A DNA stretch of 64,000 nt from an uncultured Chloroflexia bacterium (GCA_963810095.1 CAWEMM010000012.1:32001-96000), one strand, 5' to 3'. Shown: positions 921-39,946, counted from the stretch's first letter. Notes: generated from the sequence alone by a model not told the origin. Program-made: numbers and translations.

Positions 921-923
921 CCG

Positions 924-6239: not shown

Positions 6240-6367
6240 CGCTCATCCTTCGTAGCCTGTCATGGCACATGCTCCTCTGCTGAAATGATGCGCAGGAACA
6301 AGTCTCTCCAACGCCAGCCCAGACGCACTCGTCAGGGCTCACGCGAAACCCGCTCCTGCAGCGGTTC

Positions 6368-6383
6368 ATCGTATTTTTACGAT
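6368..6383. promoter_or_regulatory. Palindromic operator ATCGT-N6-ACGAT upstream of arsM
   Basis: ATCGTATTTTTACGAT; same box as the two upstream of arsR at 6851-6885; overlaps a possible minus-strand TTGGCC-N17-TACGAT promoter. Confidence 0.7.
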
Positions 6384-6430
6384 CATTGTCGGCCAAAAAA
6401 GAGCTGCTCCCGGGGACGGCTGACTCGCGC

Positions 6431-6828
6431 CTACTGGCCGCGCCTGCGACCCATGGCGCGTCCAGCCTCGATCGAGCGGCGCAATCCGGATGCTCGACTC
6501 GCAGCAGCCCGGCAGCCAACCCTCGATTTGCTCCTTCAGCCAGCGCACGCCCGCCTCGCTGAGGCAGTAGCAGGTGGCCGGCCCCTCGAACTCACCCTCG
6601 ATCAGCCCCGCCTCGCGCAGCACTTTGAGATGCTGGCTCACCGTGGACTGGGCCAGCGGCGTCGTCGTCGACGATCTCCTGCGTGATACAGGTCTTGCGC
6701 TCGGCAAGCGTCTGCATGATCCGAAAGCGAATGGGATTGCCGAGCGCCTTGAGCATCGACACGAGCCGCTCTTCGTCTGCGGTGCTGGGCCGCTCCTGAA
6801 GCGTGATACTTGCTCCATGCTTGCGCAT
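6431..6828 (-). CDS. arsR: ArsR/SmtB family repressor (frameshifted; ends approximate)
   Basis: KALGNPIRFRI, TCIT, LAQSTVSQHLKVLREAGLI, ATCYCL and C-terminal GCC. Confidence 0.85.
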
Positions 6829-6850
6829 CCCCTTCCGACCCATTTGCTAC

Positions 6851-6904
6851 ATCGTATCCTTACGATGATATCGTCTTTATACGATATAATGCGTGATTTG
6901 TCAA
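6851..6904 (-). promoter_or_regulatory. Sigma70 promoter with two tandem ArsR-type operators
   Basis: Minus strand TTGACA (6904-6899)-17 nt-TATAAA (6881-6876); palindromes ATCGTATCCTTACGAT (6851-6866) and ATCGTCTTTATACGAT (6870-6885). Confidence 0.8.
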
Positions 6905-7332
6905 GCCCCCAATTTCGCGTTTTGCCAAAAACTCGGTGACCCGGCAGCGCAATGTCGTCTCGCACGCGGCGGAAGACGGCCAGCACCTCATCCTCGCTGC
7001 CCGATCGCCTTGGCCGGGTCTGGAAAGCCCAGGTGCACCCGCCGGCCCTGCCCCAGCCAGACCGGGCAGTTCTCGGCTGCATCGTCGCACACCGTCACGA
7101 CGAGGTCGAACGGCACGGTCCGGAACTCGTCTGCACTCTTCGAGCGGCCATCGTGCTCGATGCCGATCTCGCGAAGCGCCAGCAGCGCCAACGGATGAAC
7201 GTAGCCCGCCGGCTGCGTGCCCGCACTGTAAGCCTCCCACACGTCGCCCAGCCGGGCATTGACGATCGCTTCTGCAATCTGGCTGCGGCACGAGTTGCCG
7301 GTGCATAAAAAGAGGACTCGCCGCTTATCCAT
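6900..7332 (-). CDS. arsC: Arsenate reductase, LMW-PTPase/thioredoxin type (3' frameshifts, end approximate)
   Basis: VLFLCTGNSCRSQIAE P-loop, VTVCDDAAENCP resolving cysteines, FPDPA. Confidence 0.9.
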
Positions 7333-7827
7333 CTTGCTCCGTCTCCGCAACGCAAGGTGCCGGCCGGCTTTTGAATAACGATCAGAGGCTCTACAATAAT
7401 CTGCGCTCTTCACCGAATTGGCGACGAGGCTGTACTTCTGGGCAGAGGCGAGCGCCTTGCAGCACCCGGCGTTCCGTGCGAAGCGCTGTCGCCGCCAGCA
7501 TCCGTCCGCACCGTAATCTGCGGTCGGAAGTGGAGTTCGCTGAAGATCTCCGTCCGGTCGATCTCGATCTTCTTCGTCCCATCCGCTCGGCAGCGGTAAT
7601 CCACGAGATCGATCTTGAACCGCTCGCACGCCCACAAGAACATCAGCATGATGCAGGTGTTTGCGGCAGCCACGAACGCGTCTTCCGGCGTGAGCACGTC
7701 CGCTCTGCCCGTGCGCGTCCGGAGGGCGCTGAGAAAACCATCTCCGGGCCATTCCCGAGGACGAGGTGGCCCGAGTGTCCGCCGCGCCATTCGACGTCCG
7801 TGCGATACGTTCGCGGTCTTAGCTCAT
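7325..7827 (-). CDS. OsmC/Ohr-like protein (frameshifted)
   Basis: Reconstructed YRTDVEW..FSAPP..TPEDAFVAAANTC..AQKYSLVANSVK; first OsmC Cys present, second usual Cys position reads Ser. Confidence 0.65.
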
Positions 7828-8569
7828 GGCGCCGGCCCTCGCGCTCTGAGCGCTGCGCGCAGTACGCCTGCCATGCCAGCCCGACCGCCTGCGAATACCA
7901 TGCTTCATCCTCCGCGGCCACGTCGTTGTACACCTGCGCGGTCTGCCAGATCTACGGCGGGCAGGCCGGCGTCCGCGCGCAGCCCTTGTTTGTAGCGCCA
8001 TTTCCAGGATCGGTTCGAGAGCCATGATCGTAGCCGTGCGGCCGTCCAACTCGACCGTGGTCACGGGGATTCCCGATCCGCAGGCGCACGCCGAAGTGCT
8101 GACGCTTTTCGGCGGCCGGGTCTCGCTTCCAGGAGCGCGCCGGCTGTCCGGCTCCAGCGGGCTGCAATCAGCCGATCGACTTCCGCAGCGACCGCGCCGG
8201 CCAGGGCTTCGACGACCGCCCGGCTTTCGGGCGTCAGGCGGCGCAGCCCTTCCGGCTGTGGCAGCCCACGCTCTGCCGCGAACTCGTCCACGACGAACGC
8301 GGCGGCGGGCGCGTTGCTGTAGCGTTCGGTCGCCGCGGGCGGCGCACCGCTTCTCGCAGCCGTCCACCGCGATCGTCGGGTAGAACCTGGCGAAGGCGCG
8401 GTCGCCCTCGCCGCCCGCCAGGAAGAGGGGCAGGCAGATGGTTACGGTCTGGTCGGGCCGCAAGCCCTCGAGCACCCGGAGCGCGGCCTGCCGGGTTACC
8501 ATGCCCGCCGGGCAGTTCCTCGCCGGAACAGGCGATGACGCCGACTTTGCGGCTCGGAAGACTAGGCAT
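7819..8569 (-). CDS. DGC-domain (putative Zn-binding) protein with a C-terminal CAC-containing extra domain (frameshifted)
   Basis: IACSG, TICLP, IAVDGCEKRCA, then CACGSGIPV...YNDV...Y domain. Confidence 0.7.
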
Positions 8570-9014
8570 GGTCGGCTCCCTGCTCCGGCGTGCCGGGGCT
8601 TAGCGCCGCATCCACCGCGCCCACGACTTCCTCCGCCAGCGCCCGCGCCAGCGCCAGGCCGCCCTCATTCAGCTCGGCAATCCCCGCGGGCTTTAAGGTT
8701 CGATTGCGCCGGAACGTATCCAGCACCGTGAACTCCTGCGCCACCGTGCCGCCCGACGCGCGCTACCAGCTTGCGTTGCGCAGGCCAGCTTGCAACCGTC
8801 CAGTGTCACGACGGGCGCGGTCCTGCAACGCGGCGCGGCCTGCTTCATCGCCCAGAACCAGCAGCGACAAGCGGCACGATCGCGGTGGTTTCGCGGCCGC
8901 AGTTCGTCAATCACGATGTACGCGGCTTCCCGCGTCACTGCGCCGTACGCCTTGCCGATCCCGCTGCACGGCACGATGCAGACCGGCGCGCGGCGCCGCC
9001 GTTGTCTCGCTCAT
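8562..9014 (-). CDS. DGC-domain (putative Zn-binding) protein (frameshifted)
   Basis: PCSGIGKAYGAVTREAAY and VTLDGCKLACAT. Confidence 0.7.
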
Positions 9015-9467
9015 CGATTCTCCCTCGGCTTCGGCCTGCGATCCGGGCGACCGCGAGGTAGGCTTCGGCGTCCAGCAGTCCGGAGACCGGCCACCGGGCG
9101 GGCCGCAGCTCGATGAGCCAGCCTTCGTCGTAGGGGCTGCTGATTGATCAAGCTCGGGCGCATCGGCGAGCGCGGCGTTGGTTGCGACGACCTCGACCCG
9201 CGAACGGCGCCGGAACGGCAAGGTCGACTTTGATGGTCTCGACATTCGCCAGGTCGTCCTCCGCTTCGACGGCGTTACCGACATCAGGCAGTTCCACGAA
9301 CGCGACGTCGCCGCTGGACTGCTGGCGAAAGTCGCGTCAGGCCCACCCGGGCCGCATCCCGTGCCGGGATCATAGTCGACCCACACGCCGGCAGCGGTGT
9401 ACAGGTAGCCGGACCGCACCCGAAAGATGAACTTGTCGACCCGGAACTCAAGGTCATGACCGTTCAT
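9011..9467 (-). CDS. Glycine cleavage H-like lipoyl-carrier protein (frameshifted)
   Basis: Reconstructed [36 protein letters not shown]...PEL.N..PY..GWLIEL; lipoyl-Lys in ETIK. Confidence 0.75.
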
Positions 9468-10657
9468 TCTCGTCTCCTTGCCGTGGACCCGCTCGTGGCC
9501 GCGATCATCAGGCGCGGCCCGGTCGCACGGGCGGCGGACAGGCCTCTTCGGCAGCCGCCGTCATGCCGGCAGGCGCGGGCGGCCAACTCGCTCTTGAACC
9601 ACCGGCGCTGCAGCGCGAACGCCACATTGACCAGCGCGATCATGACGGGCACTTCGATCAACGGGCCGATCACGGCCGCAAACGCCTCGCCCGAGGTGAT
9701 GCCGAACACGGCGATCGCGACGGCGATGGCGAGCTCGAAGTTGTTGCTCGCAGCCGTGAAGGACATAGTCGCCGTCATCTTGTAGTTCGCACCTGCGCGA
9801 CGCCCCATCCAGAACGTGACCATGAACATGATCACGAAGTAGAGCACCAACGGGATCGCGATCCGGACGACATCCAGCGGCTGGTTGATGATCTGCTTAC
9901 CCTGCAGGCTGAACATCACGATGATGGTGAAGAGCAGGGCAACCAGCGTAATCGGGCTGATGCGGGGGATGAACTTCGTCTCGTACCACTCCCGGCCCTT
10001 AAGCCGCAACAGGATGAAGCGCGACCCGAAGCCCGCGATCATGGGGATGCCCAGGTAGATGAAGACGGTCCGCGCCAGCTCGCCGATGCTGATCTGCACC
10101 GTGGCGCTCTCCAGCCCCAGCGCCTGCGGCAGGACGGTGATGAAGATGTAGGCATAGACGCTGTAAAAGAGCACCTGGAAGACGCTGTTGAACGCGACCA
10201 GGCCGGCCGCGTACTCGGTGTCGCCCTTGGCCAGCTCGTTCCAGACGATGACCATGGCGATGCAGCGCGCGAGGCCGATGAGGATCAGACCGGTCATGTA
10301 CTCCTGGTTGTAGCCGGCCAGGAAGATGACGGCCAGCACAAACATCAGGATCGGGCCGATGATCCAGTTTTGTACGAGCGACATGCCCAGGACCCTCGTG
10401 TTGCGGAAGACCTCGGGCAGCCGTTCGTACTTCACCTTGGCGAACGGCGGGTACATCATCAGGATGAGGCCGATGGCGATCAGGATGTTCGTGGTGCCGA
10501 TCTGGAACTTGTTGATGAGGCCTTCGAAGCCGGGGATCAGGTAGCCGATGGCGACGCCGAGGGCCATGGCGGCAAAGATCCAGAGGGTCAGGAAACGGTC
10601 CAGCGTTGAGAGCCGTTTCGGGCGGCGGGCGCGGCTGCAACTGCCGATGTGAGTCAT
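9464..10657 (-). CDS. acr3: Arsenite efflux permease Acr3
   Basis: [44 protein letters not shown] and GPLIEVP motifs. Confidence 0.95.
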
Positions 10658-10966
10658 GTTGCTCTCTCCTTGACTCGATGAAGGCCTGATTTGCCGAGCG
10701 CCGTCAGTTGGCGTCCGCCTGCAAGGACGTTGGCCAGCATGGTCACGATCTGCTCGGGTGACGGGCACCCGGCCGCCGCTGAGCAGCTGGTCGTTGACGA
10801 CCAGGCCGGGCGTGGCGAGCAAGTCGTAACGCTGGTACTCGTCCGGCGTCGCCGCTCTTCTCGAAGGTCGCGTCGACGCCGAGTTGCGCGACGCCTGCTT
10901 CGCATTCTGCGCCAGCCGGTCACAGTTGGCGCAGCCGCCGCCTAGAATCTTGATGTGCAGGGTCAT
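10654..10966 (-). CDS. Small thioredoxin-like redox-active disulfide protein (MTH895-like), frameshifted
   Basis: [19 protein letters not shown] and GGRVPS motifs; merged with acr3 in the ORF track by indels. Confidence 0.8.
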
Positions 10967-11043
10967 GTCGCAAGCCTCCGTAACAAGGATGATAGATAGT
11001 GGCGAGAGCCCCGTCTCGCATTGAGCGGGGCCGCGTCAGCAGG

Positions 11044-11414
11044 CTACTCGTATGCCTCGCGCCCTGCGCCACGTTCCACCAGGCACTTGGGGCAGGTGCA
11101 GCAGGCGAGGGCCGTCGCGGACTGCCGGCCGTTGCCGTCGCTCGACGGCAGTCTGCGCAGGCCGCGGCCACCTGGCGCGCCACGTTGTCGTCCGCCAGGC
11201 GGTAGTAAATATTGGTGCCGTCGCGCTCGTCGACGATGACCTTGGCGTTGCGCAGGATCGCCAACTGCTGCGAGACATAGGGTTGCGATTTGTTGAGCGC
11301 CGCGGAGAGGTGGCACACGCACTCGGGCTCGACCCGCAGCAGGTCCACGATCTGCAACCGCACCGGGTGCCCGATCGCCTTGAGCAAGGCGGCCTGTTGG
11401 CGGTAATGTTCCAT
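11044..11414 (-). CDS. arsR: ArsR/SmtB family repressor with a C-terminal CCTCPKC motif (frameshifted)
   Basis: KAIGHPVRLQI, ECVCHL, QPYVSQQLAILR, DGTNIYYRL; first gene of the ars operon. Confidence 0.85.
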
Positions 11415-11448
11415 ATGCTGTCTTTCCTATATAGCAATCTCTGCATAT
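11413..11448. promoter_or_regulatory. Tandem ATAT-N12-ATAT ArsR/SmtB-type operator over the RBS/start codon
   Basis: ATAT at 11413, 11429 and 11445 (16-bp spacing) in an AT-rich patch before the first arsR. Confidence 0.5.
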
Positions 11449-11677
11449 ATTACGACCGCGCCGCGTCCCTGTACATGACGCACGTCAGCTTTCCATGTGC
11501 ACGTCGGGCAGAGACTGCGGCCGGCCCGGCAAGCGCTATTGACCATTGACACCCCACAAGAGTAGTGCGATAATCGCACAAAGGCCACTTGTGGCGGCGT
11601 GCCATTGCCCTCTCGCGCTCCCCCACGCCGCGCCGTGTTGCTGAGTCCTTCCGCCGAATTGTAAGAGGAGTAATGAC

Positions 11678-14437
11678 ATGGTCAGCACCAAACGCAGCCC
11701 TGCAGGAGAGCGCAAGCCGAGATCGGCGCGCGGGGCCGTCCGGGATGCGCCTGTGGCAGTCAACCAGGCCCAGGCATACGACGTGCGCATCGTGCCGGCC
11801 CAGGTGGCGCCCGGCCAGGAATACTGGCGCGTCGTCAGCGTGCGCCACTTGAGTCCGGACGAGAACCGCGGCAAGCACAACGTGTTTGTCGACGCCCAGG
11901 ACGCTTCCGGTCAGCGCTGTCGAGACGCGGCGCTGCGCATCGGTTGGACGTGGGAGGGGCGCAACCCCCAGGACGCGGCAGACCCGAAGGCGCTCGATAA
12001 GCCGGACACCGAGCCCGCGGGCAACCTGGACGTGTACAAGGGGCAGCATATCGAGCTCTGGATCCAGGGTGATGGCCGGCCCAGCGACCATGTCGCGAAT
12101 TTGCGCACGGACCACCCCGACGAGCCGGGACCGAACGGCGAGTTGTGGAACACGTTATTCCACCACTCATTTTATGTGATCTTCCGTCTCAGCAAGATGG
12201 AGCCGGCGGGAAATGGACAGCAGCCGGGCGCCTCGGGCGCCGGTGCGCCGGGCGCCGGTGCGGGAACCGTCACTTCCCCCTCCAGCCCGCCACCTTCCAG
12301 CACACCGCCTTCCAACCCGCCCACGGCCGCGGGCTCGCCGGGAACGCCGGCGCCGCCCACGAGCGCGCCCGCGACGACTTTCCGCTTCGAGGCCTGGCCG
12401 AGCGAGTACCGGGTCATCACGCAGGCATTCGGCGTCAACCCGCAGAACTACAAGCCGTTCGGGCTGCCGGGGCACGAAGGCCTCGACATCAAGGCGCCGA
12501 CCGGCAGCAAGGTGTTCTGCGTCGCACCGGGGCAGGTCAAACTGATCACTCTCGTGAGCCCCGATCCCAAGAAGCCGGCGTATGGCAACCACGTGCGGGT
12601 GCTCCATGCGGACGGCTACGAGACGATCTACGCGCACCTGCAGTCGATCGCGGTCGAAATGGGGCAGACCGTGGCCGCGGGACAGCTCCTCGGGTTGGCG
12701 GACAGCACGGGCAACAGCACCGGCGCGCACTTGCACCTGACGCTCAAGCATCACGGCGAGTCGTTCGACGGCTATCCCAGCAGTATTGTCGATCCGACGC
12801 CGTTCCTGGCGCCGCTGCTCCAGGCGCAGCCCGCACCCGCAGCCGCAGGCGTGAAGGTGTCCGAAAAGTTGGGCTTAAACTGCAACGCGCCCACAGACGA
12901 CAACGGCAACCTCACCCCCCGCGTCGCAAACCCCCGGCTCATTGCAGATACGGGCGTGGGCTGGGTCCGGCTGAACTTCATCCTGCGGCCGTTCAACAGC
13001 CCCGCCGACGCGGGTTGGGTGGAGAATTACCGGAAGATCATCAAGGGCCTGCGCGACCAGGGGCTCAAGATCTACGGCCTGATCCACGCGCAAGCGGTGA
13101 CGGGCGACCCGGGCAACCAGTTCCGTGACGAGCCGGCAGGCTCGATCGACAACGACTGGATCCGCCGGTATGCCGAGAACTTCCGCATCATCGTCCAGCA
13201 GTTCAAGAACGACGTCGCGGTCTTCGAGTCGTTCAACGAACCCAACGACTGGCACCGGGTGCCGGGCGACCGGCCCTGGGAACAGCCGTGGGTGCATCCG
13301 TACTGGTTCGCCGTGATGCTGCAGAAGGTCTACGATGCGGTGCGCGACCTGAATGTGAAGCTCGTGTCGGGTCCGCTCCTGTCGACGCAATTCGGGAATG
13401 CGGCGGCCGGCTACCTGGCCAAGACCTACGAAGGGGGCGCCAAGTACTTCAAGTGGGGGGCCGGCGCGCCCGTGCCGTTTGACGGCGTCGCGTTCCACCC
13501 GTACGTCCTCATGGATTCTTCCCAGCCCGCGCTCGAGATCCCCCCGCGCTACCAGGACTACATGAAGGGGGTCAAGGACGCGATCACGACGTGGGAGAAG
13601 GGCACGCTGCGGCCGGTCTACATCTCTGAGATCGGCTTCCAGAACGCAGAGGACCGCCAGGTGGAGTGCATGAAGGTGGCCCTTCGCTGCGCGCTGGACG
13701 ACCCGTCCGTCGCGCTCTGCTTCTGGTATGGCATGCAGGACGATCCCGGCGAGTCCTACGGCTTGTATCGTAAGGAGGGCCTGGCGCCCGAACAGCAGAA
13801 GCCGGCGTACCAGGCCTTCGTCGCGCTGGCCCGAGAGGACCGCCGCGTCCCGGTGGCAGCCCTCCGCCCTGCGCCCCTGGTGCCCGATGCCCGTTTCGTC
13901 GCCGAGCTCGATGCGGTGAAGGATGGGACGGTCTTTGCGCCGGGCAGCTCGTTCACCAAGGTCTGGCGCATGCGGAACAGCGGCACGGCCCCATGGGGTG
14001 ACGGCTACAAGCTGGTGCGAATCGACGGGCTGAGTCTGGGCGCACCCGCCTCGATCCCCGTGCCCGCCTGCCCGCCGGGTCAAACGGTCGACCTCGCGGT
14101 CCCATTCGTGGTACCGCCGGAACCCGCGACGTGCACGAGCAGGTGGCAGCTCGTCGATCCGACCGGCAAACGCTTCGGCCAACCGGTCTGGACGACCATC
14201 AAGGTGCAGGCGCCGGTTGCCCCCGGCGTCGCGGCCAAGGACCTGTTCGGCGCCGAACCGTCCGAGCTCCTCGCGCCGGCCGCGGGACAGACGGCCGTCG
14301 CCGCCGCGCTCGGCATCATCTACACGACCTACTGGTTGCGGGTGCAGGCCGCCCAATCCGCCGCTGACCCGCAGCAGGCGCTGCGCGAGGCGGCCGAGGA
14401 CGCGCTCGCACAAATCAGGGCGTGGACGGCGACCTGA
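11678..14437 (+). CDS. Multidomain protein: unknown N-domain, Pro-rich linker, M23 peptidase, clan GH-A TIM barrel, NBR1-like Ig domain
   Basis: GGAG RBS; HEGLD...YAHL...STGAHLH (M23); FNEPN...FHPY...ISEIG (GH-A glutamates); FTKVWRMRNSGTAPWG (NBR1-Ig); no signal peptide. Confidence 0.75.
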   Translation: MVSTKRSPAGERKPRSARGAVRDAPVAVNQAQAYDVRIVPAQVAPGQEYWRVVSVRHLSPDENRGKHNVFVDAQDASGQRCRDAALRIGWTWEGRNPQDAADPKALDKPDTEPAGNLDVYKGQHIELWIQGDGRPSDHVANLRTDHPDEPGPNGELWNTLFHHSFYVIFRLSKMEPAGNGQQPGASGAGAPGAGAGTVTSPSSPPPSSTPPSNPPTAAGSPGTPAPPTSAPATTFRFEAWPSEYRVITQAFGVNPQNYKPFGLPGHEGLDIKAPTGSKVFCVAPGQVKLITLVSPDPKKPAYGNHVRVLHADGYETIYAHLQSIAVEMGQTVAAGQLLGLADSTGNSTGAHLHLTLKHHGESFDGYPSSIVDPTPFLAPLLQAQPAPAAAGVKVSEKLGLNCNAPTDDNGNLTPRVANPRLIADTGVGWVRLNFILRPFNSPADAGWVENYRKIIKGLRDQGLKIYGLIHAQAVTGDPGNQFRDEPAGSIDNDWIRRYAENFRIIVQQFKNDVAVFESFNEPNDWHRVPGDRPWEQPWVHPYWFAVMLQKVYDAVRDLNVKLVSGPLLSTQFGNAAAGYLAKTYEGGAKYFKWGAGAPVPFDGVAFHPYVLMDSSQPALEIPPRYQDYMKGVKDAITTWEKGTLRPVYISEIGFQNAEDRQVECMKVALRCALDDPSVALCFWYGMQDDPGESYGLYRKEGLAPEQQKPAYQAFVALAREDRRVPVAALRPAPLVPDARFVAELDAVKDGTVFAPGSSFTKVWRMRNSGTAPWGDGYKLVRIDGLSLGAPASIPVPACPPGQTVDLAVPFVVPPEPATCTSRWQLVDPTGKRFGQPVWTTIKVQAPVAPGVAAKDLFGAEPSELLAPAAGQTAVAAALGIIYTTYWLRVQAAQSAADPQQALREAAEDALAQIRAWTAT

Positions 14438-14745
14438 TGAGCTGCCGGGATGAGCTGTGCTCCGTGTGAGTACAGCTCATCCCACTGCTCGCAGGCAGCC
14501 TCTGCCGAGGTAGCCGCTGCCCGGGGGGCGCACAGTTCGCCTTGACAGCACAATTCACAAGAACGATGCACCAATTCCATTAAAATGGTTGTATAATCGT
14601 AGCGCCAACTAGCATTGCGAGCTTGCACCGCCGTTCTCAATATGCTCCAGAGCCAACAATGCTGAGGCCGGCTGCATCGTCAGCAGGCGGCTTTCTGTGT
14701 TGGACCGTGCCGGTTCTCGTGCGTTTCAGGACGGGGGTCACGGTC

Positions 14746-16572
14746 ATGGTAGTTGGGCTCTTCCGGTACAAGAACTTCGACCTCGAAGTCACGGAGTCCG
14801 ATGACGGCGCCTACCTAGCCGTTGCCTCCAGCGACCTCTTGCCATCGTCCGGACCCGTCAAGGCTCGTTTCTGCCTGCCATTCTCCGAAGAAGAACTCGC
14901 CCACTTTCCCGCGCCGGGCGGCTTTGCCCGTCGCCTGTCCCCAGTCCGCGACGCCCGGGTCACCCGCGCAGCGGCCCCTGCCGCTCTCGACGCAGCCGAA
15001 TTCGGACGTCGCCTCTTCGCAGCCGTCTTTGACGACGAGCAGGGACAGCCCAACGATGCGGGTGCGCTCCTCATGGCGTGCCTCCACGCCCTAAACGACC
15101 GTATCGGGCTCCGGATTCGTCTCGACCTCTGCCCTGCGCTGGCCGTTCTACCCTGGGAGTATCTGAGCTCGCCCCACGAAGATCCCTTCGCACTGTCCAA
15201 TAGAACGCCTGTCGTGCGAGTGCGCAAGGGCGACTGCCCCGCGCCAGACAACGCCGCGGTCGAAGCGCCTCTGCGGGTGCTCGCCATCATCTCGCCCGCC
15301 AGCAGCGACCTGGACCTGGCCGGGGAGTGGGAGGAACTGCAGACCGCACTGAGCGATCTCGTGACGTGGAAGTACGTCGAGATCGACCTACTCCAACGCC
15401 CGACGTTAGCCGGTCTGCAGGATGTACTGCGCGAGCACGAGTATCACGTCATTCATTTCATGGGCCACGGCGGCTTTGACGACGCGACGAATCAAGCGGT
15501 GCTCCTCTTCGACAAGGAGACGCCGGCCGAACACCTGGCCCGCCACCTGGGCAACCACCCACCCAAGCTCGTCTTCCTCAATGCATGTAACAGCGGCAAG
15601 AGCTCGCCAAACGACGCACTGGCCGGCGCGGCCCAGGGCCTGATCGCGAAGCAGGTGCCCGAGGTCGTTGCGATGCAGTTCCCCATCGGCGACCGGGCCG
15701 CGGTGCTGCTGGCGCGGGAGTTCTACGAGGCCATCGCCGACGGCTACCCGGTCGAGGCCGCGCTGAGTGAGGCCCGGCTGGCCGTCCTCGACTCGCAGCA
15801 GCAGGACGAGTGGAGCACGCCGGTGCTGTTCAGCTGCGGCACAGGCAGCATGGCGCTGGACCTGCCCGAACCGCCCCCACCCTACCGGCCGGGAACCGGC
15901 GAGCCTGAGACCGTGGTCATCCCGGCAGGGCGCTTCTGGTTTGGCAGCGGGGTGCCCGAAGATCAGCAGGGCGGCGCAGACCTGCCGCGCCAGCTCCGCC
16001 TGCCCACCTACGCAATCGGGAAGTACCCCGTTCGGAACGACGAATATGCCGGTTTCCTGAGCGAACCGAAGAACCGCAAGTATCTCCCGAGCGATCCCGG
16101 TTGGACCGTCATCGACCCACCCGCGGGACGGGAGGCAGCACCGGTTGTTGGCCTGACATGGGAAGCAGCCTGCGTCTACTGCGAGTGGCTGAGCCAGACC
16201 ACAGGCCAGCGCTACCGCCTGCCCACGGAAGCCGAATGGGAAAAGGCGGCCCGGGGCGACCAGGACCAGCGGCGCTACCCCTGGGGCAATGATCCCGCCG
16301 GCGCCCGCGCGCCAAGCCCCTACGGCTGCTGTGACATGGTAGGCACGATTTACGAGTGGACCTGCACCAAGTGGGACGGCGATCCAACAGCAGTATTTGG
16401 CCCGCATGAGGCGGGATCGTTGTCCGTCCGTGCGTCTGATGACGCTCTGACCCAGCGCGGCGGGCCTTTCAAGGCTGGTCAGCCGGCCGGGAACTGCAGT
16501 ACCCGGCGCCGCCAGCCGGGGTTGCGGACGTCTCAGAGCGTGGGCTTTCGGGTCGTGCGGGTCGTCGGTTGA
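14746..16572 (+). CDS. CHAT (caspase-like) protease fused to an FGE-sulfatase/SUMF1-like domain
   Basis: LPWEYL, VIHFMGHGGF (catalytic His), LVFLNACNSG (catalytic Cys), VVAMQFPI; then KYPVRN, RLPTEAEWEKAARG, DMVGTIYEW, GFRVV. Confidence 0.9.
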   Translation: MVVGLFRYKNFDLEVTESDDGAYLAVASSDLLPSSGPVKARFCLPFSEEELAHFPAPGGFARRLSPVRDARVTRAAAPAALDAAEFGRRLFAAVFDDEQGQPNDAGALLMACLHALNDRIGLRIRLDLCPALAVLPWEYLSSPHEDPFALSNRTPVVRVRKGDCPAPDNAAVEAPLRVLAIISPASSDLDLAGEWEELQTALSDLVTWKYVEIDLLQRPTLAGLQDVLREHEYHVIHFMGHGGFDDATNQAVLLFDKETPAEHLARHLGNHPPKLVFLNACNSGKSSPNDALAGAAQGLIAKQVPEVVAMQFPIGDRAAVLLAREFYEAIADGYPVEAALSEARLAVLDSQQQDEWSTPVLFSCGTGSMALDLPEPPPPYRPGTGEPETVVIPAGRFWFGSGVPEDQQGGADLPRQLRLPTYAIGKYPVRNDEYAGFLSEPKNRKYLPSDPGWTVIDPPAGREAAPVVGLTWEAACVYCEWLSQTTGQRYRLPTEAEWEKAARGDQDQRRYPWGNDPAGARAPSPYGCCDMVGTIYEWTCTKWDGDPTAVFGPHEAGSLSVRASDDALTQRGGPFKAGQPAGNCSTRRRQPGLRTSQSVGFRVVRVVG

Positions 16573-16604
16573 TGGAGCGAGGCGGGGCTTAGGAGGCGAA
16601 CGGG

Positions 16605-17654
16605 ATGGACGACGAACAAGTGCAGACCGCAGCCCGGCGAATAAAAGAGGGTACGTGCACGCCGATCATCAGCAACGAACTCATCATCGACCAGTATTTC
16701 GGCCAGGAAGCCGCAGGCAAGCTGGCGGGTGATTGGGCGCGCAGCGAGAGGGTGGGCTATCCCCTCGAATTGGACGAGGACAAGTACGACCTGTCCTGCA
16801 TCGCCCAGTACTGCTCGACTGTCAAGGGCTCCAGCGCAGCAAAAAGTATGTATCACGATCATCTCAAAAAGAGGTTTATCGAGGATGTCAAAAAAGCCGA
16901 TGCTCGGGCCGATGTGGACGACATCGACGAGCAGCGGGGAGACTTTACGTTCACGCAACTGGTCCTCGAACAACTCCAGCACCCGGGGTTCGGCCAACGC
17001 CTGGCGCCGGCCGCAGACGGAGCAGGCGACGGAACCACCCGAACGATCGTCGAGACGCTCGCGACCTTCAAGGCAAAGGTCTTTATCACCACCAGCCCGC
17101 ACACATTTCTCGAGAGTGCGCTGAAAAAGTACCAGAAGACACCGCGCAGCAAAGTCTACGACCCTCTGTGGGCTTCTCGGGGCGAGGATGACGCCGGCGC
17201 GACCGGAACGGGGGAAGCAACGAAGAGTGACGAGTGGAACCCGATGGTGTACCACTTGCTGGGCAAGGAAGACTTTGACGACTCGCTCGTGCTTTCTGAG
17301 GATGATTACCTGAGCGTGTTGCCAAGACTGTTCGAGGACCGCAAGAACACCAAGGTCGTGCCCGGCGAAGTGAGCGACGCCTTGACCCGCAGTTACCTGC
17401 TGCTGTTGGGGTACGACGTCGCCAGTTGGGAATTCAGAATCGTGCTCCGGCTCATTGCAACCCAGTACCCGCGACCACGCGGCATCGCGGTGCAGATCGA
17501 TCCGTACCGGGCGCCCGGCAAGGTAAAGGACCGCGACGCATACCTGGCCTACCTGAAGAAGGTGTTTGGCGACCCGGAACTCACCGTCTTTGCCGGCACG
17601 CCGTGGCAGCTTGTCGGCGACCTTGCCAAACGGCTGAAAGGGGGATCGCCGTGA
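16605..17654 (+). CDS. SIR2-like (SIR2_2-type) domain protein
   Basis: AGGAGG RBS; CTPII, FITTSPH, VYHLLG..SLVLSEDDYL, LLLLGY....WEFR; visibly more AT-rich than its neighbours. Confidence 0.75.
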   Translation: MDDEQVQTAARRIKEGTCTPIISNELIIDQYFGQEAAGKLAGDWARSERVGYPLELDEDKYDLSCIAQYCSTVKGSSAAKSMYHDHLKKRFIEDVKKADARADVDDIDEQRGDFTFTQLVLEQLQHPGFGQRLAPAADGAGDGTTRTIVETLATFKAKVFITTSPHTFLESALKKYQKTPRSKVYDPLWASRGEDDAGATGTGEATKSDEWNPMVYHLLGKEDFDDSLVLSEDDYLSVLPRLFEDRKNTKVVPGEVSDALTRSYLLLLGYDVASWEFRIVLRLIATQYPRPRGIAVQIDPYRAPGKVKDRDAYLAYLKKVFGDPELTVFAGTPWQLVGDLAKRLKGGSP

Positions 17655-20600
17655 CCAACGCAGTTTCAAGCGATGCAGCCGCCGTGGTCGCGGCCGCGCC
17701 GGTCGACGCACCCTTGGTCCCCCTGCCGGCGGAACCCAAGGAAATGCCCAACCCTTACGTCGGACCGCGGCCCTTCACGAAGGAGGAAGCCGCGCTCTTC
17801 TTCGGTCGAGATCACGAGTCGTCGGACCTGCGGACCCTCGTTTTCGTCGACCGGATCGTGCTCTTCGATGCAGCGTCGGGCGCGGGCAAAAGCTCGCTCC
17901 TCAACGCGGCGCTGCGGCAGAAGCTGAAAGAAGACCATTTCGACCTGGTGCCCGCCGACACGGCCAAGGCGCAGAGCGGCCGGGTGCGCGGCAGCTCCGC
18001 GGTCGAGGCCCCCGCCAACGTTCCCAACATCTTCGTCTACAACCTCCTCACCAGCATCGACGAAGGCAGACATACGGCCGGCGAGCTTGCGACCATGACG
18101 CTCAAGGCCTACCTGGACGAGCTGCCGGCCCCACCGCCGGGGCCCGACCGGGAACGGGTGGCACGGGTGCTGATCGTCGACCAGTTCGAAGAGATCTTTA
18201 CGTCGCACCTGGACCGCTGGGAAGACCGGGCAGGGTTCTTCAGGCAGCTGCGGGAGGCTGTCACGCCCCCCAAGGCCGACAATTCTGGCAACGGAGGCGG
18301 CCCGCTCAAGCCCGACATCTTCGTCATCCTGGCCATGCGCGACGATGCGGCGGCGATGCTTGACCAATACGCGCACCTGCTGCCCGGGCCGCCTGCGCAC
18401 CCGCTTCAACATGCAGCGCCTGGACCACGAGGCGGCGCTGTTGGCGATCCAGGGGCCGGCGGCGAATGCGGGACGACCCTTCGCCGAGGGCGTCGCCGAA
18501 GCGCTGCGCGACAACCTGTCCCTGGTCGACAACCCGGAGCGCAGACCCGAGAAGTACCAGGCCGAGTTCATCGAGCCGGTGCAGTTACAGGTTGTCTGCT
18601 GGCAGCTCTGGGAGGAACTCAGGTCGATGCCGTGCGGCGAGGCCGGCGACTTGCCCCTGGCTGCCGGCGCCGCGCCCGTGGCGCCGGCGAAGCCATGCCC
18701 GATCACCATGGAGCAGCTCCTGGCCGTGGCCCAGAAGCTTACCGGGGAGCCAGACCTGGGGACGTTTGTCGACGGCGCGCTGCAGCGCTTCTACGAAAAC
18801 GTCATGTCGGGGTCGGCCGGCAGCTTGGGTCTCACGGAGTTCGAGCTGCGCTCGTGGGTCGAGGACGAGCTAATTACCGGGCAGGGCACCCGCAACCTGG
18901 TCGACCAAGGCGAAACGAAAACCGCGGGGCTGCCAAATACGGCCGTCGAGGAGCTAAAAAAGCGGCTGCTGCTCCACCAGGAAGAACGGGGCGCGGTCCA
19001 GTTCTTCGAGCTGTTTCACGACCGGCTCGTAACGCCGATCAAGCTGTCCAATGCCGAATGGTTCAAGAAGCAGGATGTATCCCTGCAGAAAGCCGCGAGT
19101 GGAAGAAGTTCGACTCGCTTGGCAAGGGCGACGAGTGGTTGGCCCGCGGCGCCGGCCTGAAACGGGTCAGGAGCTACGTCGAGGCGGCGCAGGGGGCGGG
19201 GCAGCGGGTGCCGCCCGACCTGGTCACCTTCCTGAAAGCAAGCCAGGAGAAGGAAGCCGCCGCCAAACAGGGACGCAATTACGTCGCCCTGCTCCTGGGC
19301 TTTCTCGGCCTGCTGCTGGTCCTCGGCGTCATCTGGTCGCGTTATGTCGACAGCACGAACCAGAAAATCGCGGCCCGGGCCGACCTGGCGGGCCTGCATG
19401 CCGGCCAGATCAGCGACAAGCAGGGTGTGGCCGCAAACCCTGCGGTCGAGCCCCAGCTGAGCTTGCTGCTGGCAGTCGAGGCGCTCGACAGCATCGAGGT
19501 GGGCGGGTTTGAGGAACTGCTGGACCAGCAGTTCGGCGGCAGCAAGATCGCGCACGCGCGCACTGCCCTCCTTGGCAAGCTGCAGAGCGTGTTATCCGAG
19601 ACGGGCGGCGTGCCATTGCGGGCCGGACATGCGGTGACTGCCACCGCGGTGCTATCCTCGAGCGTCGCGGTCAGCCCGGACGGGCGCTGGGTTGCCGGCC
19701 TCGAGGCCGGCGCGGCTCCCAAGCTGCACATCTGGGACCTCCGGGGCAATCCGCCTGACGAGGAACCGGGGTCGCGGCCAGTCGACGCGACCACCATCAC
19801 CACGCTGGCGCTCGACGGGAAGGGCTCGGGGCTGTTCGTGGGTCACGACGACGGAAGCGTTGAGTATGTCTCGTTCGCCGACCGCCAGCCCCAGGCGCTG
19901 CCCGGTATCAAGGGGCAACAGCCCGTCACCCTGCTCGCCACGAGTCCGAGCCCGGGCCGCTGGCTCGCCCTGGCGGATGGGACGACAGAACTGGCGCTCT
20001 ACCCACTGAATCCCGAAGGCGCTCCGGGCCCCGTGCAGACGCTGCCCGGCCATGTCGGCGGAGTGCGGTCGGCTGTCTTCAGCCCCAACGGCAGCGTGGC
20101 TGGCCACGGTCGACGGCGAGGATCGCCTGCGCTTGTGGGATCTGCGAGGGGTTGCGGGCGCCGCAGTAGACGATGCCCGGCTGGGCGAGGCAGCCGGCCG
20201 CATTGTTGCCTTCAGCCAGGACGCGCAAGATCCGGCCTGGGTCGCAGCCGCCGGCCCCGAAGCCAATGTCGTCTACCTGTGGCGACTGCCGCTCAGCCCC
20301 GGATCGGCCGCGTACAAGATCAAGTTCGGCGCGCAAACGGACGCACCGGTTGCCGCGCTCGCGTTTGCCCGGCCTGTCGACGGACCGGCCAGATACCTGG
20401 TCGTGAGCCACACGGACGGCAAAATCATCCTGTGGCATCTGCCCACCGATCAGGATCGCGAAGAGCTGGCTGCGGCGCTGGCAGCCGAAGAGCAGGTCGC
20501 GGCGGCCGGTTCGGCCGAGAGCACGGCCGGGGCGCCCAAAACGGGCGCGGCCGGCTCAGGCCCGATTGGCGAGGACGATGGCAGCCCACCGTCAGACACA

Positions 20601-21206
20601 GGCCCTATCGGCCAGGACGATAGCAGCACACAGGCGAACGCCGGCCCTATCGGCCAGGATGGCGAGTCCGGCGCGACCCCGACCGGAGCGCCGGCGATGG
20701 ACTCCTATCCGGACCGCTGGCCGCCTATCGTGCTGACCACCCCGGGCCGGCCGCTCGTCGCGGCCAGTGGCAAGTGGCTGCTCACCGCGAGCGCCGGCGA
20801 CCCTCGCCTTTGCCGGTGGGATATCACCGAGCTGGAGCAGGGAAAGGTGTATCAAAGCCGGGTGCTAGAGCCGCCGTCCGAGGGACAGGACACGAAGCCG
20901 CCCGCTTCTTGTACGCCCATGAGCGGGCACGAAGACCCGGTGACGGCGCTGTATGCGGCGTGGATCCCGAAAGACGGGCTGCCGGGCTGGCTCAGCGTGG
21001 ACGAGCACGGCATACGGTATTGGCAGCCGCCGGGGGCCGCCGAGGGACAGCCGGCCGGCGATGGAAAGACTCTCTCGTCGCAGCTCAAGGAGCAGGCGTG
21101 CCGGAGGGCCGGCCGAGCGCTGACCCCGGGCGAGCTGGAGCGATTTATCCTGGCGAGCGCTCCGGGCGACGCGCAGTCGACCTGCGAGCGAATTCTGGGC
21201 GAATAG
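17651..21206 (+). CDS. nSTAND1 NTPase + TM helix + WD40-like repeats (frameshifts near 18385, 19090, 20090)
   Basis: GTGA overlap with the SIR2 stop; NPYVGPRPF..FFGRD, ASGAGKSSLL (Walker A), LIVDQFEE (Walker B), PVQLQVVCWQLW, ELFHDRL; TM YVALLLGFLGLLLVLGVIW; VSPDGRW/FSPNG/LWDL repeats; C-terminal AC..AGR.LT..E motif. Confidence 0.85.
20559..20684 (+). repeat. Three 42-bp (14-aa) tandem units in the STAND-WD40 gene
   Basis: GPIGEDDGSPPSDT / GPIGQDDSSTQANA / GPIGQDGESGATPT starting at 20559, 20601 and 20643. Confidence 0.75.
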
Positions 21207-21246
21207 CCGGAAGGCATGGTGGGCCGCTCGGCTCAGGAGGTGGAGT

Positions 21247-22137
21247 ATGGCGTTCACGCGACACGCAGGCTTGAAGTGGTTGCTGCTAGGCGGCCTGTTT
21301 CTTGCATTGGCCCTCATGCTGCTGAGCAGCCGGGCCGCGGCTGCGGCATGCGGCGGAGGGATCAAGTTTGGCAGCCAGACCTCGGACTGGATCGAGCGCA
21401 GCGGAGACCAGTGCGAGTACTTCTACGAGTACACCGGCGACGGGCAGACCGCAAAGGAAATCACCATTGCGATGCTCGGCGTCTCGCTCGACGAGCCGTC
21501 CCTCGCGCTGTATGCGCCGGGCAGCCGCACGCCGATGACGGGGGCGGACTGCGAGAAGCCAGTCGAGCGTCTTAGCCGGCTCAGTCCCACACCTGCACCA
21601 ACACCCTCACTCGCCCTAAGGGTCAAGCCGTCGCTGAGCCGGGCCCTGGCTGTCAGCCGGGAGGCGTCGATCTCATGTTACCTGAAGAAGCCGGGTATCT
21701 ACCGTATCGTGGCCGCCCGTGACCCCAACGCCCGGGCCGGCACGGCAACGGGCCAGTTCGTGCTCAATCTCTGTGGGACGCACATCGCCAGCCCGTACGA
21801 CGAGACACTCGAGGCGCCGCGCGACGGCGAGATCGAGCGGAAGGGGCTCGCGTGCTACAGCTTCGAGGCTCAGCCGAACGACTGTGTCACGATCGCGATG
21901 AACAAGAACCGCAAGGTGGCCGGGAACACGCTCGACCCCTGGCTGGACCTTCGCGACCCTGCAGGCACGATCATCGCATCGGACGACAACAGCAACGAGA
22001 ACGACAATGCGGCGATCCGAAACTTCTGCCTGAAGAAGCCCGGACTCTACACGATCATCGCGCGCTCGTACGATTTCAGCGGGAGCGGCCCGTTCAAATT
22101 CTACTTCACCCTGAAAGAGGCGCCCGCGAAGCGCTGA
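21247..22137 (+). CDS. Secreted Cys-rich protein with two PPC (pre-peptidase C-terminal)-like domains
   Basis: Strong RBS; signal peptide ending AAAA; DPWLDLRDPAGTIIASDDNS..NAAI..LKKPGLYTIIARSY and an earlier copy LKKPGIYRIVA. Confidence 0.7.
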   Translation: MAFTRHAGLKWLLLGGLFLALALMLLSSRAAAAACGGGIKFGSQTSDWIERSGDQCEYFYEYTGDGQTAKEITIAMLGVSLDEPSLALYAPGSRTPMTGADCEKPVERLSRLSPTPAPTPSLALRVKPSLSRALAVSREASISCYLKKPGIYRIVAARDPNARAGTATGQFVLNLCGTHIASPYDETLEAPRDGEIERKGLACYSFEAQPNDCVTIAMNKNRKVAGNTLDPWLDLRDPAGTIIASDDNSNENDNAAIRNFCLKKPGLYTIIARSYDFSGSGPFKFYFTLKEAPAKR

Positions 22138-24157: not shown

Positions 24158-24257
24158 GAAATGGGACGCTCATGCAACTGATTGAACTGATCCGCACTGT
24201 CCTTCGGGCACGAGATCGTGACAATCAGTCAGATCAGTCCAATCAGTGTCCCATTTC
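24158..24257. repeat. Dispersed ~100-bp palindromic element (REP/MITE-like), copy 1
   Basis: Terminal inverted repeat GAAATGGGAC/GTCCCATTTC with internal ACTGAT/ATCAGT units; homologous copy at 50002-50087. Confidence 0.75.
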
Positions 24258-24486
24258 ATCCCTCGTTGTTCGGCGCAGCGGGGTGAGTGTCTATTCGCAA
24301 AGTGGAAAGAACGCGCTGCGTACTACATGTGCAAGCGCACATCGCGAGCTGTCTCGGCGTAGCCCCTCGCACGGAGTTCCGGCGGGTTTCGGCTATACTG
24401 TTGCCCGTTACGGACGCTTGGACACCGAGGCGTCTGACGCAAGCAACGCCTGCCGGACGCCGGCGGGTAGCGACAAGGGGTTGGGC

Positions 24487-25362
24487 ATGGGTATTGTCGT
24501 TCTGGGCGACATTGCGGTCGACATCACCAGCTATTTGCGCACGCCACTGCTGCGCGGCAGCGACGCCCCGGCCGAGGTCCGGGTCATGCCCGGCGGCTCA
24601 GGAGCCAATGTTGCCGTGTGGCTGGCGCGCGCCGGGATCGAGGTCACGTTCCTGGGCCGGGTGGGCGACGATCCGTTCGGCCGTTGGCTGGCTGAAGACC
24701 TGGAGCACGAAGGCGTCCGCCCGGTCCTCGCCGTCGATCCGGCCCATGCAACGGCGGTGATCCAGGTGCTCGTCGAGCCGGGGGGCGAGCGCACCATGGT
24801 GCCCGACCGGGGCGCGAACGCGCACTGGGATGAGGGCGACGTGCCCGAGGAGCTTATCGCGCGCGCCGAGTTGCTCCACGTCGTCGGCTACGTCCTGCTC
24901 GATGCCGGCAGCCGCCATGGCGCCTTGCAGGCGATGGAGATTGCTCGGCGGCGCGGCGTGCCTATCAGCCTGGATCCAAGCTCCCACGGCCCGCTGACTC
25001 GGCTGGGCGGCGAGGCGTTCTGGTCGCTCGCCGGACACGTCGATCTGTTCCTGCCCAACCGGGGCGAGGCGGCGGCTTTGACCGGCTGTGCGGACCCCGA
25101 AGCGGCGCTCGTGGCGCTTAAGCCGCACGCAAGCCTGGTGGCCATTAAGTTGGACCGGGAGGGCTGCATCGCTGGCTCTGACGCGACGCCGGCCCACCGC
25201 CAGGCAGCACCGCAAATACCTTCTCCCAACGCGACCGGCGCAGGCGATGCATTCGACGCAGGGTTCCTGGCAGCCTGGCTCGGAGAGCACGACCTGGCCG
25301 CGGCCTGCCGCGCAGGGGTGGAATTGGGGTCGCGCGCCGCGGGCCTGCCGACGACACGCTGA
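24487..25362 (+). CDS. PfkB family carbohydrate kinase
   Basis: PGGSGANVA, GRVGDDPFG, PNRGEA, ATGAGDAFDAGF. Confidence 0.9.
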   Translation: MGIVVLGDIAVDITSYLRTPLLRGSDAPAEVRVMPGGSGANVAVWLARAGIEVTFLGRVGDDPFGRWLAEDLEHEGVRPVLAVDPAHATAVIQVLVEPGGERTMVPDRGANAHWDEGDVPEELIARAELLHVVGYVLLDAGSRHGALQAMEIARRRGVPISLDPSSHGPLTRLGGEAFWSLAGHVDLFLPNRGEAAALTGCADPEAALVALKPHASLVAIKLDREGCIAGSDATPAHRQAAPQIPSPNATGAGDAFDAGFLAAWLGEHDLAAACRAGVELGSRAAGLPTTR

Positions 25363-39562: not shown

Positions 39563-39946
39563 GCGTCACTGGCGCGAAGAGCAGTCCCTTCCTGGAACGC
39601 GATGCTGCCGGCATAGGGCAGTGGGACCTTGTCGCAACCGCTCGTCTTCCCGCGCACCCGCATCTTACACCCGAACAGCCAAAGTGGCTACGTAAGATCG
39701 CACACGATAGCGCCGCATTGTTTGGCACTCGTAGCGAGCTTGTCAACGGCTTGTGTGTCTCCTTGGGTGGCTGGACGGGCCGTTGCCATACAAAGGGGTA
39801 AAGTCACCGCGGGGCGCAATGGAGTCTTGCCTACACTACCAAGTTGTGGCATGATGCACCGTGTCCGAGTTTGTGAGCCTACCTCGCTCCACGCCCGCCG
39901 ACAGTCGCGATCGTCGCGCCCTCATCCATCGTTCCCTGGAGGCATC

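Follow-up and report, generated by a model that had tools for sequence, protein, structure and literature searches.

What kind of system is encoded by four tightly packed genes of an uncultured Chloroflexia bacterium is the question raised by positions 14746 to 22137 of a stretch of 64,000 nucleotides from its genome (GCA_963810095.1, CAWEMM010000012.1:32001-96000), the whole of which is referred to here as the window. A sequence-only reading of this DNA had proposed a conflict system resembling the nucleotide-binding leucine-rich repeat (NLR) receptors and centred on an NTPase of the signal transduction ATPases with numerous domains (STAND) class. The core of the locus is a conserved cassette and not a chance neighbourhood, and on balance we lean towards the view that these genes specify a membrane-spanning NLR-like signalling system whose type is conserved and apparently undescribed. 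The earlier interpretation was right in kind and is partly supported, with three corrections: the SIR2-fold protein is degenerate, the FGE domain is a constant module of the family, and the PPC gene is lineage-specific. The four open reading frames (ORFs) all lie on the plus strand, and they are packed as that reading had described, with a gap of 32 nt, a GTGA start/stop overlap at 17651-17654 and a gap of 40 nt.

14746..16572, plus strand: gene 1, a CHAT-FGE protein of 608 amino acids, with CHAT at about residues 121-354 and FGE at about residues 386-605 (Pfam)
16605..17654, plus strand: gene 2, a SIR2-fold protein (Pfam SIR2_2), with PIISN, TTSPH and YHLLG as its NAD-site motifs
17651..21206, plus strand: gene 3, an nSTAND1 NTPase with a helical/winged-helix region, one transmembrane helix and a WD40-type region (Pfam and frame-wise translation)
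21247..22137, plus strand: gene 4, a protein of 296 amino acids with two PPC-like repeats, secreted or N-terminally anchored (Pfam, hydropathy and homologs)

The domain assignments made from the sequence were compared with Pfam. Gene 1 matches CHAT (PF12770; 106.6 bits, 2.1e-30, cut-off 24) and FGE-sulfatase (125.8 bits, 3.1e-36, cut-off 23.3), and gene 2 matches SIR2_2 (45 bits, 1.5e-11, cut-off 24.5). Gene 3, which is divided among alternating reading frames, matches nSTAND1 with its first frame segment alone (PF20703; 83.7 bits, 2.6e-23, cut-off 27.1) and its pieces also match WD40 (31.8 bits, 1.9e-07); the paralog P0001 matches nSTAND1 with 122.6 bits. As had been claimed, the Walker A (SGAGKSS) and Walker B (LIVDQFEE) motifs of gene 3 are intact, and the columns that hold them show no variation in 34 and 36 homologs, respectively. 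The PPC match of gene 4 (PF04151; 24.1 bits, 6.9e-05) falls just below the cut-off of 25.9 bits, and three homologs of the protein carry a precomputed PF04151.

Whether these genes belong together was examined with a profile of SIR2 homologs, which found SIR2 loci where a single-protein query had found none. The profile yielded 555 relatives confirmed by tblastn in species-representative genomes, from which the 79 best loci were retained. Of these, about 66 belong to the Chloroflexota by record title or tree label, and the remainder are from the Pseudomonadota, Thermodesulfobacteriota, Verrucomicrobiota, Actinomycetota, Ignavibacteriota, Acidobacteriota and Bacillota. In 75-76 of the 79 loci an nSTAND1 NTPase starts on the same strand at most 2.5 kb downstream of the SIR2 gene, with a median of 66 nt between the two matches; the loci lacking it are L020, where the contig ends, L060 and L079. 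The prediction of a STAND-centred multi-gene system with conserved co-occurrence is thereby borne out.

Directly upstream of the SIR2 gene, 38 of the 79 loci encode a protein that ends in an FGE-sulfatase domain. The N-terminus of these proteins varies, being CHAT in 11, TIR_2 in six, EAD7 in five and unassigned or cut in 16. The FGE module on the CHAT protein, which had seemed an oddity of the window, is thus a regular feature of the family. Seven of the FGE proteins (L005, L014, L023, L029, L032, L061 and L080) have in common a helical N-terminal module of about 90 amino acids, which has no Pfam match and occupies the place taken by CHAT, TIR or EAD7 in other loci; it may be an as yet undescribed effector-associated adaptor domain. 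Assignment of the unassigned N-termini to EAD7 was tried and rejected, as a hidden Markov model built from the five EAD7 N-termini matched none of 14. Fusions of CHAT to SIR2 without any FGE occur in eight loci by Pfam and also in L060, which is cut at the contig start and was recognized by tblastn alone. The family trait is therefore a variable effector or adaptor domain on a constant FGE, followed by SIR2 and then nSTAND1. Behind the STAND gene, the scan of downstream genes revealed no conserved fourth member of the cassette.

The source genome itself carries a second, paralogous cassette (locus L001, G000:C6:1598000-1616000). Here a CHAT-SIR2 fusion (11087-13153, minus strand) is followed by an intact nSTAND1-helix-WD40 protein (7341-11330, minus strand), whose sequence contains the hydrophobic helix and 13 matched WD40 stretches. 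After this STAND gene lies a gene for a protein of 677 amino acids with a weak Peptidase_C25 match. Elsewhere the surroundings of the cassette are varied. In tandem cassettes a second SIR2-like gene directly follows the STAND gene (L005:13854-14876 and L033:9125-10129), and other downstream neighbours include patatin (L019), caspase C14 (L038), EAD7 (L073), PIN (L070) and a DDE transposase (L006), together with Amidase_2 and M14 genes in some loci.

The second question is where the STAND protein resides. The sequence-only reading had placed one transmembrane helix between the NTPase and the WD40 region, and this helix is present in the window, upstream of a repeat in the presumptive outer region.

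19280..19336, plus strand: transmembrane helix of the STAND protein, a hydrophobic 19-mer (Kyte-Doolittle 2.59) between the NTPase and the WD40 region
20557..20659, plus strand: tandem repeat with a 42-nt unit (2.5 copies), coding for an insert rich in Gly, Asp and Ser within the outer region

The intact ortholog of gene 3, P0085, has a different repeat at the position of the 42-nt repeat. Among the 75 STAND ORFs found in the loci, 61 extend at least 600 amino acids beyond the NTPase start, and 55 of these 61 possess one hydrophobic helix 350-600 amino acids from that start. A single helix is thus a trait of the family. The 15 residues flanking the helix contain on average 5.05 Lys and Arg on the N-terminal side vs. 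1.87 on the C-terminal side, and the N-terminal flank is the richer in 52 of the 55 STANDs and equal in the other three. The positively charged flank of a membrane helix is cytoplasmic according to the positive-inside rule, so this bias points to a cytoplasmic NTPase and an external C-terminal region.

The domains that follow the helix point in the same direction. The region is of the WD40 type in 28 of the 55 STANDs by tblastn. Among the other 27, Pfam finds FGE in five, Peptidase_M14 in four, Peptidase_M23 in two (one with SH3_3), PPC in three, TPR in three, PD40 in two, a pentapeptide repeat in one and nothing in seven. M23, M14, SH3_3 and PPC are domains usually found outside the cytoplasm in association with the cell wall. 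The metal-binding motifs characteristic of the M23 and M14 families are absent from the copies found here, which for this reason look like binding modules instead of enzymes. Based on the charge bias of the family and the types of post-helix domain, the STAND protein is predicted to have its N-terminus inside and its C-terminus outside, in keeping with the earlier proposal of a receptor-like membrane STAND whose C-terminal part faces outward.

The fold of the cytoplasmic part was modelled with AlphaFold2 (AF2) for the homolog L002, which has the closest architecture, in place of the broken gene of the window (pLDDT 86.3). In the model a nucleotide-binding domain leads into a helical domain and then a winged helix, and the predicted membrane segment falls within a single long helix spanning residues 436-569. 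Its neighbours in a Foldseek search are ORC/Cdc6, CED-4, ZAR1 and Apaf-1, with a TMq of only about 0.3 and with the ORC/Cdc6 chains slightly above the STANDs. The WD40 repeats lie C-terminal to the NTPase, as in the STAND domain order.

Gene 1 is predicted to encode a caspase-like CHAT protease, and the catalytic dyad, which had been described as intact, consists of His 237 in HFMGHG and Cys 279 in NACNSG. The protein has no hydrophobic segment (maximum Kyte-Doolittle value over 19 residues, KD19, of 1.07) and is predicted to be cytoplasmic. Among the matches of the FGE family profile are ToxD (1e-44), SUMF2, which is an inactive paralog, and solved true FGEs (about 1e-36). Aligned to 6s07 and 5nxl, the profile has a gap and residues other than Cys opposite the Cys of LCHESYC, and both catalytic Cys positions of the window's own FGE read Ala and Gly in the alignment, as judged by eye. 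The domain therefore appears to be a non-catalytic binding fold that is conserved as a module of the family. FGE-type domains may also be targets of diversity-generating retroelements, a possibility that was considered and rejected here. No RVT_1 reverse transcriptase was matched in the source genome, which is 88.5% complete, and no template-like copy of the FGE DNA was found, so that there is no visible sign of such targeting.

The SIR2-fold protein of gene 2 presents a different case. Its AF2 model (pLDDT 86.5) has as best Foldseek matches ThsA (8bto; E 3.4e-11, probability 1.00, TMq 0.59), KomC and DSR2, and the modelled fold is that of SIR2. In the profile alignment to ThsA, a Ser of the family stands at the Asn of TTNYD and a Leu at the His of HG (KMHG), and the position of the Gly-rich loop of SeThsA is PIISN in the window protein. 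Since this protein has replacements at all three NADase features (Gly-rich loop, Asn and His), gene 2 is probably not an NADase here and more likely an adaptor. The earlier suggestion of an NADase effector is accordingly not upheld for the window protein.

The same features were compared across 79 aligned rows, comprising the window and 78 loci (L058, for which no ORF was called, was dropped). The full canonical set of Gly-rich loop, Asn and His is found in none of the 39 FGE-linked rows, 21 of which, the window included, lack all three features. It is likewise found in none of the nine CHAT-fused rows, all of which lack the canonical His, and it is found in 11 of the 31 remaining rows; these counts come from related sequences and are hence not independent events. 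The 11 canonical rows are two-gene loci, mostly outside the Chloroflexota, without an effector gene upstream. Their SIR2 proteins are recognized by the PADLOC ThsA models (about 3e-18), whereas the SIR2 protein of the window is not. In a FastTree tree of the SIR2 proteins each of the three classes is confined to one side of a branch (support 99, 97 and 90), and the window, on a long branch, clusters with L002 and L003 (support 98), which are both CHAT-FGE loci. It may be that the starting point was an active SIR2 effector paired with a membrane STAND, that new effectors were then acquired and that the SIR2 fold was kept as an adaptor. The region of the SIR2 gene (16500-17499) has a G+C content of 0.60-0.61 vs. 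0.64-0.71 in its neighbours, an observation that stands beside the long branch in the tree.

Gene 4 had been proposed as a secreted co-sensor. The protein has an N-terminal hydrophobic segment (KD19 2.12), and six Cys are invariant among four homologs; both features fit export. Its identity to the PPC repeats that the L038 STAND carries beyond the helix is 31% (E 2e-12). PPC repeats are fused to the outer region in three STAND family members, which gives some support to a link between gene 4 and the STAND protein. Moreover, the PPC homolog P0082 (59%), the SIR2 homolog P0004 (61%) and the STAND homolog P0085 (64%) are each reported from a contig of 89417 nt, and it is solely this shared reported figure that places the three on one contig. 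A general role for the PPC gene in the cassette is not supported, as gene 4 has no tblastn match in the 79 loci and PPC is in none of the 37 downstream genes scanned; the scan omitted three of the 40 candidates for their great length.

From this evidence we infer a topology, a set of binding partners, a direction of signalling, a trigger and an outcome. The nSTAND1 protein would cross the membrane, its NTPase on the cytoplasmic side and its variable WD40-type region on the outer side, where that region, possibly aided by the secreted PPC protein, would bind a cue from the envelope or the exterior. Binding of the cue would release NTP-dependent oligomerization of the cytoplasmic STAND modules. 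The degenerate SIR2-fold protein, encoded immediately upstream, would serve as a non-catalytic adaptor on the STAND platform, and the constant FGE-fold domain would dock the variable effector, here the CHAT caspase-like protease. Proximity would then activate the protease, and cleavage of cellular targets may lead to cell death or arrest. A broader view is that the family as a whole comprises membrane-spanning bacterial NLR-like receptors for external ligands, STAND-coupled to cytoplasmic death effectors through a SIR2 pseudo-enzyme adaptor and an FGE docking module; we advance this only tentatively. With similar reserve, the external ligands might include cell-wall fragments, recognized through the degenerate M23 and M14 folds, and other cues recognized through WD40, PPC and TPR.

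Several observations weigh against this interpretation. The cassette is rare and patchy, with the SIR2 profile present in 15 of 301 sampled genomes of the phylum (9 of 18 within one family) and in none of seven genomes of the same genus; among 41 relatives it matched seven at E<=1e-20. The helix is missing in six of the 61 STANDs surveyed (L037, L045, L048, L052, L057 and L063), and the charge bias of the window's own STAND is weak, with four Lys and Arg on the N-terminal flank vs. three on the C-terminal flank. An outward sensor is also an odd fit for phage defence, as the known STAND sensors read intracellular proteins. The SIR2 pocket retains the invariant residues T162, T163, H217, G220, E232 and D233, so gene 2 need not be inert and may have acquired a changed activity or a role in ligand binding. 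The PPC gene is lineage-specific and not a general member of the cassette. FGS domains have been proposed as sensors of invaders and not as docking modules (Kaur et al., 2021; PMC8195603). Finally, gene 3 contains three indels in 3.6 kb, which exceeds the background visible in the window (one clear case in about 60 kb), and two of the four other nSTAND1 genes of the genome are also split between two frames (G000:C7:68530-73220 and G000:C7:515209-516511); together these leave room for real decay. The nSTAND1 genes may be either prone to assembly errors or often decaying.

The last point leads to the strongest of the rival explanations, namely that the frameshifts are real, that the STAND gene is a recent pseudogene and that the cluster is a relic in this genome. 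The sequence-only reading had noticed three frameshifts, and these are real features of the assembly; P0085 aligns across the alternating frames.

17651..~18388, ~18384..~19094, ~19091..~20091 and ~20082..21206, plus strand: frame segments of gene 3, in alternating frames
18383..18389, plus strand: frameshift 1, one extra base in cccgggc (frame-wise translation)
19092..19094, plus strand: frameshift 2, one base missing (frame-wise translation)
20088..20092, plus strand: frameshift 3, one extra base inside a WD40 blade (frame-wise translation and ortholog alignment)

Two of these three 1-nt indels lie outside long homopolymers, which, with their excess over the background and the split state of the other nSTAND1 genes, would suit a decaying gene. 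The remaining evidence favours errors. The intact ortholog P0085 (1253 amino acids) aligns colinearly to the window in four pieces, residues 26-247, 246-502, 482-834 and 818-1252, with identities of 89, 79, 63 and 41%, respectively. Judged against it, gene 3 is complete apart from the three indels, and every frame segment is open outside the three sites over residues 26-1252 of the ortholog. A soil-metagenome contig from run X1 is about 97% identical (62 differences in 2199 nt). Compared with the window, it is one base shorter at 18383 and contains an additional G after 19093, and the two changes together remove frameshifts 1 and 2. A contig from a second study (run X5) also has the extra G after 19093. 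For frameshift 3, no public soil-metagenome contig examined bridges 20091-20124, and the contigs of X1 record 6 and X6 record 29 both end exactly at 20091. Such contig breaks, with changes in depth, suggest mixed strains over the gene and so favour consensus errors. That indel errors exist in the source assembly is indicated by two further genes. The essential rpoB, which lies outside the window, is frameshifted (G000:C14:146878-150922), with one frame ending at 150456 and the conserved C-terminal part in the frame of 150218-150922, and a branched-chain type ABC permease of the window (921-1953, plus strand) is split, with BPD_transp_2 positions 3-105 in 921-1715 and 139-269 in 1480-1950. Overall, the frameshifts are likely to be consensus errors of the assembly, perhaps arising from mixed strains. 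Real decay is correspondingly doubtful, and a system that is dead in this genome is rather unlikely.

The next rival would reverse the roles of the two binding regions. The cytoplasmic FGE, a C-type-lectin fold, would be the sensor of an intracellular invader molecule, the membrane STAND would act as a scaffold or switch, and the outer region would only tether the complex to the envelope or act on it. The proposal of FGS domains as invader-binding sensors was made for STAND systems (Kaur et al., 2021; PMC8195603), and it suits both the constancy of the FGE on the upstream protein in 38 loci and its occurrence after the helix in five family members. Variability, however, resides in the outer region, which is the part of the STAND protein that differs most from P0085 (41-63% identity vs. 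89% in the NTPase) and whose domain types vary widely across the family. It is usually the variable C-terminal repeats that form the sensor of a STAND or NLR protein. The outer M23 and M14 copies without catalytic motifs are unlikely effectors, the FGE is not visibly diversified given the lack of a reverse transcriptase or template copy in the 88.5%-complete genome, and nine loci manage without any FGE, as CHAT-SIR2 fusions. An FGE sensor is therefore unlikely, and the outward-facing STAND receptor is retained as the preferred interpretation. Most improbable of the three is a non-immune role as an envelope-surveillance or developmental module of filamentous bacteria, in which the receptor would read the state of the cell wall and the protease would process targets, for example in filament breakage or differentiation: outer domains of cell-wall type (degenerate M23 with SH3, degenerate M14, PD40), the downstream Amidase_2 and M14 genes, the ordinary chromosomal genes flanking the locus and the recurrence of PfkB downstream in the window and three other loci would agree with it, but the effector swaps among CHAT, TIR and EAD7, the tandem cassettes and the transposase, PIN, patatin and caspase neighbours are hallmarks of conflict systems, the distribution is patchy (none of seven same-genus and 15 of 301 phylum genomes), and the canonical SIR2 of the two-gene relatives matches ThsA defence models.

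How far does the arrangement correspond to a system that is already known? The sequence-only reading had not recognized it as a named one, and neither a PADLOC model nor a match in the literature consulted has been found. In PADLOC-DB 2.0.0, the window gives only a SAVED_CHAT match (6e-13, to the CHAT domain) and a marginal BovA match (E 0.0086), both from the CHAT-FGE protein. The homologs give only matches to ThsA-type SIR2, TPR or HEAT-ARM domains, and none of five STANDs scanned matched an NTPase model. The sections of the STAND and FGS literature consulted contain no description of an nSTAND1 protein in the membrane that has a SIR2-fold neighbour as its obligatory partner and a separate effector of the X-FGE type, where X is the variable N-terminal domain, and the supplementary neighbourhood tables of that literature may list such loci. 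The arrangement is thus apparently an undescribed variant of the STAND conflict systems, without a match in PADLOC.

Among the closest known systems are the NTPase-FGS systems, in the description of which nSTAND1 was named and which are single polypeptides joining an effector or effector-associated domain (EAD) to the NTPase and the FGS, often with a retroelement (Kaur, Iyer, Burroughs, Aravind, 2021; PMC8195603). Both they and the cassette combine nSTAND1, an FGE fold and swappable CHAT, TIR or EAD7 domains, and the NTPase-FGS systems are described there as enriched in filamentous or multicellular bacteria, as the cassette is. Unlike these cytoplasmic polypeptides as there described, the cassette carries the FGE on the effector protein, no reverse transcriptase was found in the source genome, its STAND has a membrane helix and an outer domain, and a SIR2-fold gene is interposed. 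EADs and a membrane-associated EACC1-caspase pair have also been described (Kaur et al., 2020; PMC7159879), and nSTAND1 occurs in some EACC1-caspase systems according to the later paper (PMC8195603). The latter resemble the window in being membrane-associated, in their caspase-fold effector and in their occurrence in multicellular bacteria. From what is described there, EACC1 is a small separate protein with one helix and the caspase protein bears the variable region, whereas in the window the helix lies inside the STAND protein and no EACC1-like gene was seen. A periplasmic location has been considered for some sensor domains (Dore et al., 2024; PMC10907252), and STAND clades with WD40 or FGE sensors have been surveyed in a 2026 preprint (10.64898/2026.01.04.697583).

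Comparison with better characterized proteins leads to a similar outcome. Gene 2 has the SIR2 fold of Thoeris ThsA, DSR2 and KomC by Foldseek, and the two-gene relatives keep the canonical motifs, but the window protein lacks the Gly-rich loop, the Asn and the canonical His. Fused SIR2-STAND proteins exist; in the window, SIR2 is instead a separate gene beside a membrane STAND. With the apoptosome of Apaf-1 and CED-4 the locus shares a STAND NTPase with WD40 blades and a proposed adaptor coupling to a caspase-fold protease, and CED-4, ZAR1 and Apaf-1 are among the Foldseek matches of the L002 model. The apoptosome proteins are soluble and cytoplasmic and use caspase recruitment domain (CARD) adaptors, whereas the window protein has a membrane helix and a sensor predicted to face outward, with SIR2 and FGE folds in the adaptor position. 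Finally, the CHAT domain with its His/Cys dyad is like that of the type III CRISPR and CBASS-like systems, as reflected in the SAVED_CHAT match. Unlike these, the window has no SAVED or TPR-Csx29 part and no CRISPR context, and the match is confined to the CHAT domain.

The surroundings of the locus in the window are those of an ordinary chromosome. It is flanked by unrelated genes, with an M23/GH5/Ig-like protein upstream and DUF6544, RibD_C and PfkB downstream. The PfkB kinase of the window (24172-25362) has counterparts downstream of the cassette in L014, L062 and L080, and a GH5 and Ig-like protein downstream in L056 (7200-10016) resembles the upstream gene of the window. These recurring neighbours hint at a shared chromosomal site. 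A TATAAT motif is present at 14592-14597, as the sequence-only reading had remarked; a promoter scan found no complete sigma-70 site, against 0.8 expected by chance, and the remark about a promoter is therefore no better than chance. Terminator-like sites in the scan were no more frequent than in shuffled sequence. Further away, positions 4759-11426 contain an arsenic-resistance-like group with two methyltransferase genes, ArsR-type helix-turn-helix (HTH) genes, a low-molecular-weight phosphatase and a thioredoxin-SBF (ACR3-like) transporter. One HTH_5 match in this group is partial and may mark a further frameshift. At 36488-41164, a BTAD and TPR regulator of 1026 amino acids on the minus strand adjoins a divergent radical SAM protein.

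To our knowledge, the characterized STAND and NLR receptors of animals, plants, fungi and bacteria read intracellular ligands. If the interpretation offered here is true, an outward-sensing STAND family would join the logic of surface receptors with the death platforms of NLRs, and the outside-in activation of a caspase-like protease would become testable in bacteria. The family may also be a case of the conversion of an enzyme into an adaptor, with canonical SIR2 in the two-gene relatives and degenerate SIR2 where a CHAT, TIR or EAD7 module has been added. Its concentration in the filamentous Chloroflexota would fit the proposed link between a multicellular habit and regulated cell death.

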